Shown in pieces: positions 12,001-18,000 of a stretch of 64,000 bases of DNA; position 1 is the first letter of the stretch, and each line of letters begins with the position of its first letter. The position numbers were made by a program. Origin of the DNA: Escherichia coli O157:H7 (lineage in GTDB: Bacteria > Pseudomonadota > Gammaproteobacteria > Enterobacterales > Enterobacteriaceae); NCBI RefSeq assembly GCF_013167455.1, contig NZ_CP038328.1. One strand, written 5' to 3'.

Positions 12001-15000
12001 CCAATTGCCTGTGAACCGTACAGTACGGAATATGGACCTTTCACTACCTCAACACGCTCCAGCGCAGACTCATCTATCAACAGTCCCACACCATAATTAT
12101 CTCCGGCGCGCTGATAAGTTACCTCCTGACCATCAATGAGAATTAAAACACGGGAGGATGCTTCGCCACGAATGCGGATTTGTTTACGGCCTGCCAAGGA
12201 GTTGTCTGTTATCTCTACTCCGGGGATGTCCTGCAAATTATCGGCTATGGAGGCATTGGTGGAGTTCTGCAATGTTTGTTGGTCAATAACCTGTATAGTC
12301 GCCGGGCTTTCCCAAAGGTTGCTTGCCGAACGATTCGTGGTCACGACGAGCGTCTCTTCGTTGCTGATTTTTGTTTCTGAAGAAGTTGCGGTTGCAGTAG
12401 AAACTATCCCAGAAATGCATAATGACAGAGTGGAAAGGATATAAATTCGACAAGGTATATTATATAACATTTCATCCCTCATTAATACAAAGTACAAATG
12501 ATTGCTGTAATGATAATTATTTTCATTTATGTTCTCATATATCTATAATTATTGTCATCTTCATAAATTGTAAATATCAAACATTTTTGACCTTAATCAT
12601 GTTTTTTGATAGATATTTTACGACTGAACATATCCGTCGTTTCCTCTGACTCGTGTCAGTCGGTCTCTGGTTGTATCCACGGACCGCACTCTTGACATAA
12701 GAGTGCGGTCCGTGGAAAACGGAGTTGAAAAAATGGTGTCTGAAAGAAGGTACCATCATTGTGATGACAAATACTTTGGCGTGGATAATGTAATTAATTG
12801 CTGAAATTGACCGTATATGCGGTAAGACTCATATCAGTATCAGGTCCGGTTAATTGCTGATACTAATATAAACTTTTTACAAAAGGATGAATGCAGAAGG
12901 TTACTCTAATGGCCAGAGTGATGACAATGATGGTCAGACGTTGACCTGCAGAAACTGCATTTTAATTGGTCTATAAAGTCTGCAAGAGGAATCAGGGTCA
13001 GATCAGTGAGTCTTATCGCGGCCCGAAGCTATGACTGAAAGAAGGCTGGATACAGAATTGCAACAATTTGGCAATGTCAGAACACAGAAGCTTTGCAAGC
13101 AGGTGAAAGGTTATGTCTAGCAAAAGGAGTATATCAGAATATATCTACTGATGTACAAAACACAACAATAGCTTCATGATATATAAATACGTGATGACGA
13201 GTGGTACTCCGCATGGTTATTTAACTTCTAAGCACCACTAATGATCCTGAGCAACTTCGTATTTGGGCCATTACCATGGAGTAGAAAGCTGTGTCTGAGA
13301 ATGCAGAATTTGAGAAAAGAATTCGCTTTCTTGGAGAGATTCTGAAAATGGCACGCTAACAACGTTTTGTTAAAAAATGTGAATTACTTGCCGGGGCTGC
13401 ATTTTCTATTCGAGGAGAATGTTGACGTAGATATTACAGAAATCTCAGCGCATCAGGATAAACTGCTACCTTAGGTCAACCACCAAAAGAAAATACAATA
13501 CGTCCAGTTTGTATGCCTTTAATAACACATCTTCTAAATGTTGAAGAATTATCCCGCCTGCTGAAGAACGTTGCTCTGAGTGTAATAAACCTTTTTATTC
13601 TTGATGATGTCAGCGAGAAGATGGAATATATCCCCGACTGGGTCGTGGTTACCCGGTTAAACATCTGGTGGTGCTAATAAATCTGGCAAGTCACATTCTG
13701 TTGAATGCTGTGACAGTGCCTTACCGAGAGAGCGAAATTGTGGTGTTCTAGTGCATAGTCGCCACCATTCCGGATAATTCTATTACGTTGTTTTACAAGT
13801 TCTTTTACAGCGCAGATCTGTCGCTGACGTTGAATCAATAGCCTGGATTTCAGAACACAATGCCCGTTTGCTGGTTGTTCGTAAGCGTACAGCGAGGGCC
13901 GTATTGACGGGGATGTGTTATTCAGCTGGCAGTGCTATGCGCCACGGAAGCAGTTCGCTGACCCGGTTGACCGGCCAGTCTGCTATGACGCCAAGCACAT
14001 GGCGAAGGTAGCTTTCTGGATCCACGTCATTCAGTTTGCACGTCCCGATCAGGCTGTACAGTAGCGCTCCCCGCTCACCACCATGATCAGAGCCGAAGAA
14101 CAGGAAGTTTTTACGACCCAGACTGACCGCCCGCAGGGCATTTTCAGCGATGTTGTTGTCGATTTCCACCCAGCCATCGTTCGCATAGTACGTCAGTGCC
14201 GGCCACTGGTTAAGTGCGTACGCGAACGCCTTCGCCAACTCTGAGTGTCGCGACAGGGTCTTCATCTTTTCACGCAACCAGCTTTCCAGGGATTTCAACA
14301 ACGGTTTCGTTTTTCGCTGACGTTCAGCAAGCCGCTGCTCTGCCGGCATTCCCCTTATATCCGCCTCTATGGCGTACAACTGACCGATCTGCTCCAGGGC
14401 TTCTTCCGTCAGTGCTGACGGGATGCGGACGTGCACATCGTGGATCTTTCGGCGGGCATGAGCCCAGCAGGCAGCTTCCGTTATCCCACCATTGCGATAC
14501 AGCTCGTTGAACCCGGCGTACGCATCCGCTTGCAGCACACCGCTGAAGCAGGCAAGATGAGTCTGCGGATGGATGCCTTTTCTGTCCGGGCTGTAAGCGA
14601 ACCACACTGCAGGTGCCAACGCTGACCCTGCATTGCGGTCATCACGAACATACGCCCACAACCGCCCGGTCTTCGTCTTCTTATTACCCGGCAGCAGTAC
14701 CTGGACCGGGGTATCATCGGCATGGAGTTTGCCGTCAGTCATGACATAGCCATGAAGCGCCTCTTCCAGCGGAGACAGCAGCCGGCAGCATGCATCCACC
14801 CAGCCCGACAGCAGTGAACGCCTCAGCTCCACACCTTGCCGGCCGTATATTTCTGACTGGCGATACAGCGGGGTGTGCTCTGCATACTTCGAGGTCAGCA
14901 CGCGGGCCAGCAGCCCCGGTCCGGCGATACCCCGCTCGATGGGCCGCGAAGGTGCAGGTGCCTGCACGATGGCATCGCACTGAGTACAGGCATGTTTTTC

Positions 15001-18000
15001 CCGTACCGTCCGGATAACCCGGAAGGCGCTACGCATCAACTCCAGCTGTTCGGCGGTATCCTCGCCCAGATAGCTCAGTGAACCGCCGCAGTTCGGGCAG
15101 CACGGCGCCGCAGGCAACAGTCGCTTTTCGTCACGGGGTAGTGATTCAGGGAACGGCTTACGGGTGCGGGTCTGACGCAACGGACGCTGTACTGCCGGGT
15201 CATACACCCTACCAGTCAGCGTATCGCTCTCTTTCTGAAGCCGGTTCAGATCGGCTTCCATTTGTGCGATACGGCGGGAGACTTTTTCGGAACGACTGCC
15301 GAAGTTCATCCGGCGGAGTTTATCCAGCTGCGCCTGCAGATGGTCTATTTCGCGCTCCCGGTTGCTCAGCTTTTCCTGCAGGGCGTGGATCAGCGCTTCC
15401 TGTTCGGCCAGGCGCTGTTTCAGCAGGAAGATGTCGTCAGAAGAGATGTCGTTCATAAGCCCGTATTTTACCGGGCTTATTCTGTGACAACCAGGATAAA
15501 GAGATTTACAGCATGGTCAGGGAGGTCAGCAGCCGCTTAGGCTGTCGCCAGTCGATACCTTCCAGCAGCATCGCCAGCTGCGCCTGCGTAAGGAACACTT
15601 TGCCATCACGGGCTGACGGCCAGGCGAAGCGCCCACGCTCCAGCCGTTTGGTCAGGAGGCACAGTCCGTCACCGGTGGACCACAGCAGTTTAACCTGACT
15701 GCCGCTGCGGCCCCGGAAAATGAAAACATGGCCGGACATGGGATCGTCTTTCAGCGCCGTTTGTACTTTCGCAGCCAGGCCGTTGAAGCCATTTCTCATA
15801 TCGGTGATACCGGCAACCAGCCAAATTTTGGTCCCGGAAGGTAACGGGATCATCGCTTCAGTTCCTGTATCAGCAGAGTCAGGAGCTTTTCGCTGACATT
15901 GCCATTGAAGCGGAGCGTCCCGTGCCGGAACGTTACCTCACAGCTGATACTGAGGGTTTCCGGGTCCTCTGCGAGCGATTCTGGCTGTTCGGCAGCTGCA
16001 TCGAGAGTCACAGGAAGTAGCTGGGGGCTCTCTGAAGAAGGTAATAGCAGCTTTCCCTCGCGCCATTGTTGTCGCCATTTGAACAACAGATTGGCGTTAA
16101 TGCCATTTTCAAGAGCAAGTTTTGAGATGGATATCCCGGGTTCACAGGAGGCAGCAACGAGCTGCTGTTTAAATTCGGGAGGATAATTAGGGCAGCCTTT
16201 TCGCCTGCCGGGAGTCACATTTTTCTGCATATCTGATACTTTGGTTCCCACTACTTATTTGGTGGACACCACTTTGTCTAATTCGTCAGATTCTGACCAG
16301 ACGGTTCAGGCTGTACGCTTACGGTTGTTCCGGCAGTAGCATTAATTCATTATCTGAATGAAATGTGTCAATCCACAGAAACCGCTGTCAATGACGCATT
16401 TTGTCGGACGTTAACACGAGAAAGTCTGGCTATTCCGTAATGCCATCTTATTTCGTAATGGATTGAGAATGCTGGATTTTTAATTATATTACGCGCAGTA
16501 TTAATCGCGTAAATGTTTTGCGGTCAGCAACGGTGGGGGATCCATTGTTCTGTTCAATGAATACCATCATACATTTGAATCAGGAGTCGGTATGATGATT
16601 TTGGTGACGGGGGGCGCACGGAGCGGGAAGAGTCGCCACGCAGAGGCGCTTATTGGGGACTCTTCACAGGTTCTGTATATCGCTACCTCGCAAATCCTTG
16701 ATGATGAGATGGCTGCACGGATAGAACATCATCGGCAAGGCCGCCCGGAGCACTGGCGCACAGTGGAGCGCTGGCAACATCTTGATGAATTAATTCATGC
16801 AGACATTAACCCGAATGAGGTTGTGTTGCTTGAATGCGTTACCACAATGGTGACTAATCTGTTGTTTGATTATGGCGGCGATAAAGACCCTGATGAATGG
16901 GATTATCAGGCGATGGAACAGGCGATTAATGCTGAGATTCAGTCGTTGATTGCTGCCTGCCAACGTTGCTCCGCAAAGGTTGTATTAGTGACTAACGAAG
17001 TGGGAATGGGGATTGTGCCGGAGAGTCGTCTGGCACGACATTTTCGTGATATTGCCGGGCGGGTAAATCAGCAGTTGGCCGCTGCGGCAAATGAAGTATG
17101 GCTGGTGGTTTCGGGTATTGGAGTAAAAATCAAATGAGTAAATTATTTTGGGCGATGCTCTCATTTATTACGCGTCTGCCTGTACCGCGTCGCTGGTCCC
17201 AGGGACTGGATTTCGAGCATTATTCTCGCGGTATTATTACTTTTCCTTTGATTGGATTATTGCTTGGCGCGATTAGCGGGCTGGTCTTCATGGTGCTGCA
17301 GGCATGGTGTGGCGCACCACTGGCGGCACTGTTTAGCGTACTTGTGCTGGTGCTGATGACCGGGGGATTCCATCTGGACGGCCTCGCTGATACCTGTGAT
17401 GGCGTATTTTCTGCACGTAGCCGCGATCGCATGTTGGAAATCATGCGTGATAGCCGTTTAGGTACCCACGGCGGTCTGGCATTGATTTTTGTTGTACTGG
17501 CAAAGATTTTGGTGTTAAGCGAGTTGGCTCTGCGTGGCGAACCGATCCTTGCATCGCTGGCGGCAGCATGTGCGGTCAGCCGCGGGACTGCCGCATTATT
17601 GATGTATCGTCATCGTTATGCCCGGGAAGAAGGGCTTGGCAATGTGTTCATTGGCAAAATTGATGGGCGACAAACCTGCGTCACACTCGGCTTAGCCGCT
17701 ATTTTTGCTGCCGTATTATTGCCGGGTATGCATGGTGTGGCTGCTATGGTGGTGACGATGGTGGCGATTTTCATCCTCGGTCAGCTTCTCAAACGTACGC
17801 TGGGCGGGCAAACCGGCGATACGCTGGGAGCAGCCATAGAGCTTGGTGAACTGGTCTTCCTGCTGGCACTGCTATAAAGAGACGTGACATGCAAACACTT
17901 GCCAATTTACTGAATACGATCCCTGCCATCGATCCTGCCGCTATGTCGCGTGCACAACGGCATATTGACGGGTTACTCAAACCTGTTGGTAGCCTGGGAA

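Follow-up and report, generated by a model that had tools for sequence, protein, structure and literature searches.

Among the insertion sequences of pathogenic E. coli, those of the IS66 family rank with the most abundant, and they are known disrupters of stx genes. Inverted repeats starting 5'-GTAAGCG are a hallmark of the family. One member, ISEc8, is already annotated in the reference genomes of E. coli O157:H7, including the site and the family assignment that concern us here. The Sakai record has, at repeat_region 2735640-2738081, a 2442-bp element with three genes and a GGTTGTTC duplication that is labelled 'ISEc8 Family: IS66' and is placed beside cobU, outside the island SpLE2. A second relevant member, ISEc23, is known as a 2541-bp element on plasmid pWP5-S18-ESBL-08_1. 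The closest described counterpart of the other end of the island is the CP4-44 island end of K-12, which has the same order of yeeW, a transposase fragment, a EutP/PduV fragment and yeeX/tmaR; the transposase fragment next to yeeW in our sequence is presumably the yoeD of the K-12 map. According to a report based on short-read data (bioRxiv 10.1101/527788), the interval between yeeW and yeeX is polymorphic for an ISEc23 insertion, and a published count gave 494 ISEc8 transposase CDS in 48 strains (PMC10758439). For DDE transposons more widely, palindromic target-site motifs are the general model (PMC2577343, PMC3276498).

The locus compared with these systems lies in a window, by which is meant the whole stretch of DNA analysed, of 64,000 nucleotides from an O157:H7 genome (contig NZ_CP038328.1 of assembly GCF_013167455.1). 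Its features are collected in Table 1. The account judged best, at a probability of about 95%, is that ISEc8 transposed into a dead cobalamin-gene remnant and that the second IS66-family element, at the island's opposite end, is an old, largely deleted ISEc23-like insertion. The names ISEc8 and ISEc23 as used here rest on the PGAP and Sakai annotations of matching sequence; PGAP labels identical copies of the first 'IS66-like element ISEc8 family' and names elements matching the second as ISEc23 family.

Table 1. Features at the two ends of the island, in window coordinates
Feature	Coordinates	Strand	Basis or remark
C-terminal remnant of EutP/PduV-family gene (yoeF in K-12-type annotation)	390..572	minus	PGAP in L001, mapped; yoeF in match H136
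71 bp, neither PduV nor IS66	573..643		also in island-bearing strains without IS66 remnant
ISEc23-like IS66-family remnant, last 159 bp	644..802	plus	158/159 identical to ISEc23 copy
IS110-family transposase pseudogene, 5' fragment	803..902	minus	alignment with locus L005
IS4-family transposase pseudogene fragment, right island edge	13650..13838	plus	PGAP in L001 and L002, mapped
'Cobalamin biosynthesis protein' pseudogene remnant, first 34 nt	13847..13880	plus	PGAP in L001 and L002, mapped
Left target-site duplication copy, GGTTGTTC	13873..13880		read from sequence; empty site has one copy
ISEc8 (IS66 family), complete, 2442 bp	13881..16322	minus	100% identity to O157:H7 copies
IRR, right terminal inverted repeat	13881..13903		low-coordinate end of ISEc8
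tnpC, DDE transposase, 512 aa	13918..15456	minus	Pfam and NCBIfam
tnpB, IS66 accessory protein, 115 aa	15506..15853	minus	Pfam and NCBIfam
tnpA, accessory HTH protein, 126 aa	15850..16230	minus	coordinates per PGAP in locus L001
IRL, left terminal inverted repeat	16300..16322		cobU-proximal end of ISEc8
Right target-site duplication copy, GGTTGTTC	16323..16330		read from sequence
'Cobalamin biosynthesis protein' pseudogene remnant, remainder	16331..16440	plus	PGAP in L001 and L002
Best sigma-70-like promoter match, TTGAGA-16-TATATT	16463..16490	plus	consensus match only
cobU	16592..17137	plus	ORF; annotated in L001, L002 and L174

ISEc8 and its insertion site upstream of cobU

A TnpC of the IS66 type, tnpA and tnpB, GTAAGCG ends and an 8-bp duplication were all found at 13881-16322, and the three open reading frames, all intact, exceed the curated cutoffs for IS66. 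TnpC matched Pfam DDE_Tnp_IS66 (PF03050, E=2e-106; 283 of the 284 positions of the profile aligned), the additional Pfam domains IS66_C, LZ and zf-IS66 (PF13817, PF13007, PF13005) and NCBIfam transpos_IS66 (NF033517, 459 bits, cutoff 180). TnpB matched TnpB_IS66 (PF05717, E=1e-38) and IS66_TnpB (NF033819, 120 bits, cutoff 50), and TnpA matched HTH_Tnp_1 (PF01527) and the IS66-like TnpA family (NF047595, 97.7 bits, cutoff 74). The tnpA stop overlaps the tnpB start in the ATGA at 15850-15853, and a GTG at 16251 is an alternative start that would lengthen TnpA to 133 aa. GTAAGCG-type terminal inverted repeats are present at both ends, perfect at 13 of 13 positions (GTAAGCGTACAGC inward from both ends) and identical at 19 of 23 overall, with computed arms at 13880-13902 and 16301-16323 (83% identity); ISEc22, ISEc23 and the ECONIH4 element have the same GTAAGCG start. 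GGTTGTTC is a perfect 8-bp match at both junctions (chance probability 4^-8, ~1.5e-5), and the repeat is limited to these 8 bp because the adjoining bases differ, so that it does not form part of a longer host repeat, as had been conceivable. The sequence-only reading of an intact ISEc8-like element with a perfect 8-bp duplication proved exact, in position and in its 2442-bp length, when set against annotated ISEc8 copies. The element is identical at 2442 of 2442 nucleotides to copies in many O157 genomes, which have 8-17 copies each, and shows 1 mismatch to the copy that Sakai has here. Taken together, the intact reading frames and ends and the multi-copy identity suggest that it is probably still active. 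A blastn comparison at word size 7 showed no second ISEc8 copy elsewhere in the window, and an Rfam scan gave no match inside ISEc8 or the second element.

Comparison with other genomes showed both states of the site. The empty site, reconstructed with one copy of GGTTGTTC, was found in the O157 strain 493/89 with 100% identity over 426 nt and was covered at >=80% in 3706 of 5426 complete E. coli genomes. In 300 genomes the site was filled; these are essentially all O157, and the best 60 of them, with Sakai and EDL933 included, are O157 without exception. In 493/89 the cobalamin pseudogene spans the empty site over 144 nt (L002 3180-3323); ISEc8 interrupts it, and in the filled genomes it is annotated in shortened form. 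Because the filled site is essentially confined to O157, the empty site is widespread and Sakai is annotated at the same site, ISEc8 at this position is, on these sequence comparisons, a simple, lineage-specific insertion that was already known, and they support an insertion that would be recent relative to the diversification of E. coli. It had been proposed from the window alone that this was a simple and probably recent insertion between the island and cobU, for which an empty site should be sought in related genomes; the duplication, the near confinement of the filled site to O157 and the empty site in 493/89 and ~3700 other genomes bear this out. Neighbouring IS629 insertions are all that sets the window strain apart from Sakai and from the complete genomes of RefSeq, none of which has its IS629 junction at 21724.

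The insertion point is 261 bp upstream of cobU and only 35 bp outside the position at which homology to island-less strains resumes. IS elements are often found at island edges, and it could be argued from this proximity that the copy arrived within the SpLE2/CP4-44-type element and never transposed here in its own right. However, it has a perfect 8-bp duplication of its own and lies outside SpLE2 in the Sakai record, while 493/89 and thousands of other genomes have the IS4 remnant edge and the cobU flank joined by a precise empty site with a single GGTTGTTC. Since the empty site thus occurs in island-bearing genomes, an island-borne origin is effectively refuted.

The reading preferred is that ISEc8 would have transposed into the dead cobalamin-biosynthesis remnant, outside the island, on the lineage toward typical O157:H7 and following its split from the 493/89 lineage. 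From what is known of the family, TnpC and the accessory TnpA and TnpB would have linked both GTAAGCG-type ends to the target strands at an 8-bp stagger, with gap repair giving rise to the GGTTGTTC duplication. The target region is AT-rich, non-functional DNA in which insertions are tolerated. Going by the consensus promoter scan, the insertion spares the best promoter-like site for cobU and is probably neutral.

The ISEc23-like remnant at the other end of the island

Only comparison with other members of the IS66 family revealed what the second element is. No DNA similarity between ISEc8 and 644-802 was detected (blastn, word size 7), the full ISEc8 and ISEc23-like elements are ~65% identical, and the 42-aa fragment encoded by the remnant had no match in NCBIfam. 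The remnant matches positions 2383-2541 of the 2541-bp ISEc23 (in L007, where the element is at 819-3359, the matched part is 3201-3359) and consists of the C-terminal 42 codons of tnpC, whose stop codon is at 770-772, and an IRR with CGCTTAC as its last bases; its translation is GTCRLNGIDPEAYLRHIL...LPWNVVLTNK*. Only these last 159 bp, 6% of the element, survive in the window, without IRL and without a duplication. Compared with strains such as SCEC020001, the window has lost the other 2382 bp of the element together with 1311 bp of adjacent DNA.

The sequence-only reading had placed an IS66-family 3' end at 606-803 and held that it truncated a EutP/PduV-like gene. The existence of a remnant and its derivation from a separate member of the family stand; its extent does not, homology being confined to 644-802 and 606-643 not being IS-derived. 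The truncation was not upheld either. Insertion of an IS66-family element into the gene is suggested by the closeness of remnant and pseudogene, 71 bp apart, and those 71 bp (573-643) are themselves other DNA. In island-less strains the pseudogene is already without its N-terminus; homology to these strains breaks off at 563 or 572 (at 572 for L004), and the 572/573 boundary is common to strains that have an IS110-family element there without the IS66 remnant. The geometry is also wrong: the IS terminus (IRR, 802) faces away from the gene, with the broken internal end facing it, and the terminus side abuts IS110-family sequence. It is therefore very unlikely that this element truncated the gene.

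The alignments are more consistent with an ISEc23-like element that would have inserted long ago into an IS110-family element at this end of the island, most of it being taken by a later deletion that left the last 159 bp; the order of these events is inferred. Window positions 1-643 are contiguous with L005 and L006, the IS66-family homologues start at 644, and from 803 onward the window aligns with L005 from 5476 onward, the IS110-family pseudo-CDS in L005 being 4547-5575 on the minus strand. The junction contained in 480-880 is present in 3201 of 5426 genomes, for which reason the remnant is considered old. No genome was found with a full ISEc23 at exactly 802/803, only nearby independent insertions. 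The ends of the IS110-family element as taken from a second copy in strain S30 were unreliable, that copy being cut by IS100 and ISEc12, and for this reason only the overlap with the annotated IS110-family pseudogene is described here.

Recurrent IS66-family insertion and target preference

The earlier suggestion of repeated IS66-family activity at this locus turned out to hold far more strongly across the species than a single sequence could reveal. At least seven independent IS66-family insertions, six besides the O157 ISEc8, were found within 375 bp upstream of cobU across strains, and this short stretch, repeatedly struck in other E. coli, is the one mildly new point to emerge. Perfect 8-bp duplications were found at 13570, 13676, 13873, 16340, 16366 and 16387, and all eight IS66-family insertions examined besides the window's ISEc8 have one. 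The target at 13873 served two insertions of opposite orientation, made by elements with only 86% identity between them, and in the pseudogene stretch 16331-16440 the targets of other strains are at 16340-16347, 16366-16373 and 16387-16394. Literature searches on ISEc8 with cobU returned nothing specific.

The flanks of ISEc8 elsewhere point to a target preference. Among 110 unique, independent half-sites from unrelated metagenome and viral contigs, position -24 was A or T in 98 (p=2e-12), position -10 was C in 57 (p=9e-13) and position -3 was C in only three, with the same flank pattern at both IS ends. A position weight matrix (PWM) built from these flanks, applied symmetrically by assumption, ranked the O157 site 4th among the 1041 local positions and within the top 0.1% of the whole window; the ranks of site 13570 (top 17%) and site 16387 (top 5%) were weaker. 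Fisher combination over six sites gave p=1.7e-7 with the whole window as background and p=2.4e-5 with the local region, the two backgrounds to which the clustering statistics refer. The preference is weak, statistical and two-fold symmetric, and it predicts the sites upstream of cobU. The signature proposed from it may be ~48 bp wide, with A/T 16 bp and C/G 2 bp outside the duplication edges, and its core may be AT-rich and lack C at the third position in from either IS end. It resembles the palindromic motifs of DDE transposons in its two-fold symmetry and in reaching past the duplication; the literature searched yielded no account of a motif like this in the IS66 family. The position of the O157 copy fits this preference, and the choice of site was probably non-random.

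Clustering of this kind could also reflect selection, for instance if the elements supplied or altered transcription of cobUST. The upstream cbi operon has been lost in E. coli. Expression of cobUST could plausibly be sensitive to upstream changes after that loss, and of the five insertions located in the final 72 bp of the zone, four have one orientation in common, with IRL toward cobU. Both orientations nevertheless occur (the ECONIH4, IMT5155-type and NMBU_W05E18 insertions are opposite), every insertion point is upstream of the best promoter-like match, the promoter consensus scan detected no outward promoter at the IS end, and the positions used are predicted by a PWM trained on unrelated sites. 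Selection is accordingly an unlikely cause of the cluster. A replication-linked orientation bias (PMC3971601) was considered separately and rejected, since the orientations are mixed here and are opposite at the two island ends. A further reading, that the ~375-bp non-functional stretch from the island edge to cobU is a recurrent landing pad for the IS66 family across E. coli, caused by an ISEc8-type target signature of which no description was found, is given an even chance of being correct.

The main finding itself alters nothing in what is understood of the locus, and it may have a modest use as a lineage marker, typical O157:H7 being filled and 493/89 empty. If the proposed target signature is true, IS66-family elements would have a measurable insertion bias, which would explain their build-up in certain intergenic 'junkyards'.

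The ISEc8 insertion beside cobU

The element at 13881-16322 (2442 bp) is bounded, in window order, by the junctions GCT GGTTGTTC / GTAAGCGTACAGCGAGG ... CAGGCTGTACGCTTAC / GGTTGTTC CGGCAG, and its terminal inverted repeats are perfect over 13/13 positions and match at 19/23 in total. The bases beyond the two octamers are unlike, so the target duplication is exactly 8 bp and not a piece of a longer host repeat. The octamer is frequent, with 7 copies within the window on both strands; the chance of its falling precisely at both ISEc8 junctions is 4^-8. The products of tnpA, tnpB and tnpC (3/3) lay above curated IS66-family thresholds (Pfam and NCBIfam) and all the testable defining features of the family were found in the element, which is 55-64% GC against 37-45% GC in its AT-rich flanks. 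Many O157:H7 genomes carry copies 100% identical across 2442 bp, at 8-17 places per genome, which PGAP labels 'IS66-like element ISEc8 family', and it is by identity to these annotated copies that the element is assigned to ISEc8. Its counterpart in the Sakai reference (2735640-2738081, annotated 'ISEc8 Family: IS66') has cobU (ECs_2788) as one neighbour, 'phage-like element SpLE2' as the other, and the octamer at both ends; the two elements are one base apart, as are 1600 bp of flank. Because it is already annotated in reference genomes the insertion is known and ordinary.

A simple insertion had been proposed by the sequence-only reading, and the empty site expected in related genomes was found. 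A 426-nt query joining 13668-13880 to 16331-16543 matched the single-copy empty site of O157 strain 493/89 with 100% identity and was covered to at least 80% in 3706/5426 complete genomes. The filled ISEc8 junction was present in 300 genomes, and with a second filled-site query O157 accounted for 60/60 among the matches listed, including Sakai, EDL933, 86-24 and Xuzhou21. ISEc8 entered 261 bp before the start of cobU, in a short pseudogene (PGAP 'cobalamin biosynthesis protein, missing N-terminus') that measures 144 nt where the site is empty and is split where it is filled. Homology to the island-less strains SW07099 and ZF8-1 ends at 563 or 572 on the left side and resumes on the right at ~13846, which places ISEc8 35 bp outside the island and confirms its proposed position between island and cobU. 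Judging by the best sigma-70-like candidate site for cobU (16463-16490), which is downstream of the insertion, ISEc8 is probably neutral here. In some genomes (H34 and H35, lab-type strains) the match to the empty site began only at 13747/13748, and a second matching place lay elsewhere, a pattern that points to yet another putative insertion, in the IS4-remnant region. In K-12 there is presumably an IS5 upstream of cobU.

Four identical IS629/IS1203 copies, each with an ALIL frameshift pseudoknot, also occur in the 64 kb, that at 10655 interrupting a TonB-dependent receptor gene (yoeE); IS629 occupies other positions in this island in Sakai and TR01. The junction at 21724 was absent from all RefSeq complete E. 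coli genomes, and the window therefore represents a genome of O157 type carrying private IS629 insertions. A lambdoid prophage (~42300-64000) is integrated beside tRNA-Ser (42326-42412) and carries a hok/sok locus (sok 53355-53529), a three-tRNA cluster (56445-56691) and STnc100 (57465-57637). The tRNA-Asn gene is present in four identical copies, at 20024, 23745, 25566 and 41262.

Features of the window and 8-bp target duplications of IS66-family insertions near cobU (window coordinates)
Position	Feature	Strand	Details
390-572	EutP/PduV pseudogene	minus	
10655-11965	IS629/IS1203	plus	
13918-15456	tnpC	minus	intact ORF, 512 aa
15506-15853	tnpB	minus	intact ORF; ATGA overlap with tnpA
15850-16230	tnpA	minus	intact ORF
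13873-13880 and 16323-16330	target duplication GGTTGTTC		read from sequence
21724-23033	IS629/IS1203	minus	
30568-31877	IS629/IS1203	minus	
59664-60973	IS629/IS1203	minus	
13570-13577	GTTGCTCT, ISEc8	plus	NMBU_W05E18
13676-13683	AATAAATC, 94.8%-identical ISEc8 relative	plus	APEC IMT5155 and ~20 others
13873-13880	GGTTGTTC, ISEc8	minus	O157
13873-13880	GGTTGTTC, element 86% identical to ISEc8	plus	ECONIH4 (locus L011, 4201-6640)
16340-16347	CATTAATT, ISEc23-like fragment and ISEc8 composite	minus	EC261 (locus L009, 3718-6672)
16366-16373	TGTCAATC, ISEc22	minus	PK8276
16387-16394	GTCAATGA, ISEc8	minus	Z0117EC0051

The ISEc23-like remnant and the EutP/PduV pseudogene

A second IS66-family element had been read at 606-803; its 3' end is real, but its left boundary is not, since IS66-family homologues align to the left-end DNA only at 644-802. 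This remnant matched a complete 2541-bp plasmid ISEc23 (target duplication GTTAATTT) at 158/159 positions and comprises the final 42 tnpC codons, the stop codon and an IRR ending CGCTTAC at 802. ISEc8 and ISEc23 are only ~65% identical, so what had been called divergence reflects a different family member and not decay. The 480-880 junction is old, as it was found in 3201/5426 genomes, and a short-read study reports an ISEc23 polymorphism between yeeW and yeeX (10.1101/527788).

The claim that the remnant truncates the EutP/PduV gene did not hold. Island-less strains already have the pseudogene without its N-terminus, and strains without the IS66 remnant, such as SCEC020001 and 2010C_5028, have the same 572/573 border between pseudogene and foreign DNA. 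Strains of this type are contiguous with window 1-643, next have a 1311-bp stretch with an IS110-family transposase pseudogene in it, and return to the window at 803; window 803-902 corresponds to the 5' end of this pseudogene. Because the remnant-less strains have IS110-family DNA between 643 and 803, the remnant lies inside IS110-family sequence, and a deletion extends from within the ISEc23-like element to 643. We infer that insertion preceded deletion; a full ISEc23-like element at exactly 802/803 was not found in the genome search. Only ~100 nt of the transposase gene 5' end, with upstream sequence, survive in the window. At one remnant-less locus (L005) the IS110-family pseudo-CDS spans 4547-5575, one related genome (H122) annotates the element 'IS110 family RNA-guided transposase', and 540 genomes covered at least 80% of a 2-kb L005 query holding it. 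Apart from the left boundary of the remnant and its supposed effect on EutP/PduV, the earlier description is accurate.

Repeated insertion at the island edges and proposed target choice by ISEc8

Repeated IS66-family activity at the locus, as had been suggested, is clear from junction-style searches, which located other insertions, each with a perfect 8-bp duplication (those upstream of cobU are in the table). The O157 target has been used a second time, independently and in the opposite orientation, by the ECONIH4 element. The EC261 chimera consists on the left of the IRR end (~510 bp) of an ISEc23-like element (85% identity) and on the right of a complete ISEc8, the whole bracketed by a single CATTAATT duplication; it could have arisen by nested insertion and deletion or by end-targeted insertion. 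An ISEc8 in metagenome contig L112 has an IRL flank identical to window ~740-760, inside the remnant (tnpC 3' end), and ISEc8 thus also inserts into ISEc23-type elements. At the other island end ISEc23 or ISEc43 insertions were found at 4 positions besides the remnant, 4/4 in its orientation. Most events at both edges have IRR facing the island interior and IRL the chromosome backbone (5/5 left-end ISEc23/43 events, 4/7 in the cobU-side 375-bp zone), a shared orientation without obvious mechanism that may be coincidence.

Target preference was derived from ISEc8 flanks on unrelated contigs, IRL flanks being taken from metagenome and IRR flanks from viral contigs, with 110 unique half-sites kept after two flanks also present in the window were dropped; no two of the 63 IRL flanks collected first were similar. 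Position -24 was A or T in 98/110 half-sites (p=2e-12), position -10 was C in 57/110 (p=9e-13) and position -3 was C in only 3/110, the duplication core was AT-rich, and the same flank pattern occurred at IRL and IRR. A symmetrically applied position weight matrix built from these half-sites was run over the empty-site form of the window. It placed the O157 site among the best 0.1% of positions window-wide and 4th/1041 in the local non-coding region, and the other five target positions in the top 0.2%, 0.3%, 2.5%, 5% and 17% (Fisher combination for the six sites, p=1.7e-7 relative to the window and p=2.4e-5 relative to the local region). The 12-14 kb segment has one of the window's highest densities of high-scoring sites. 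Only the apparent landing-pad pattern and this putative statistical target signature are mildly new material. The insertion cluster upstream of cobU is most simply read as sequence-guided choice of targets within DNA that bears insertions at no cost; selection on cobUST is a weaker alternative.
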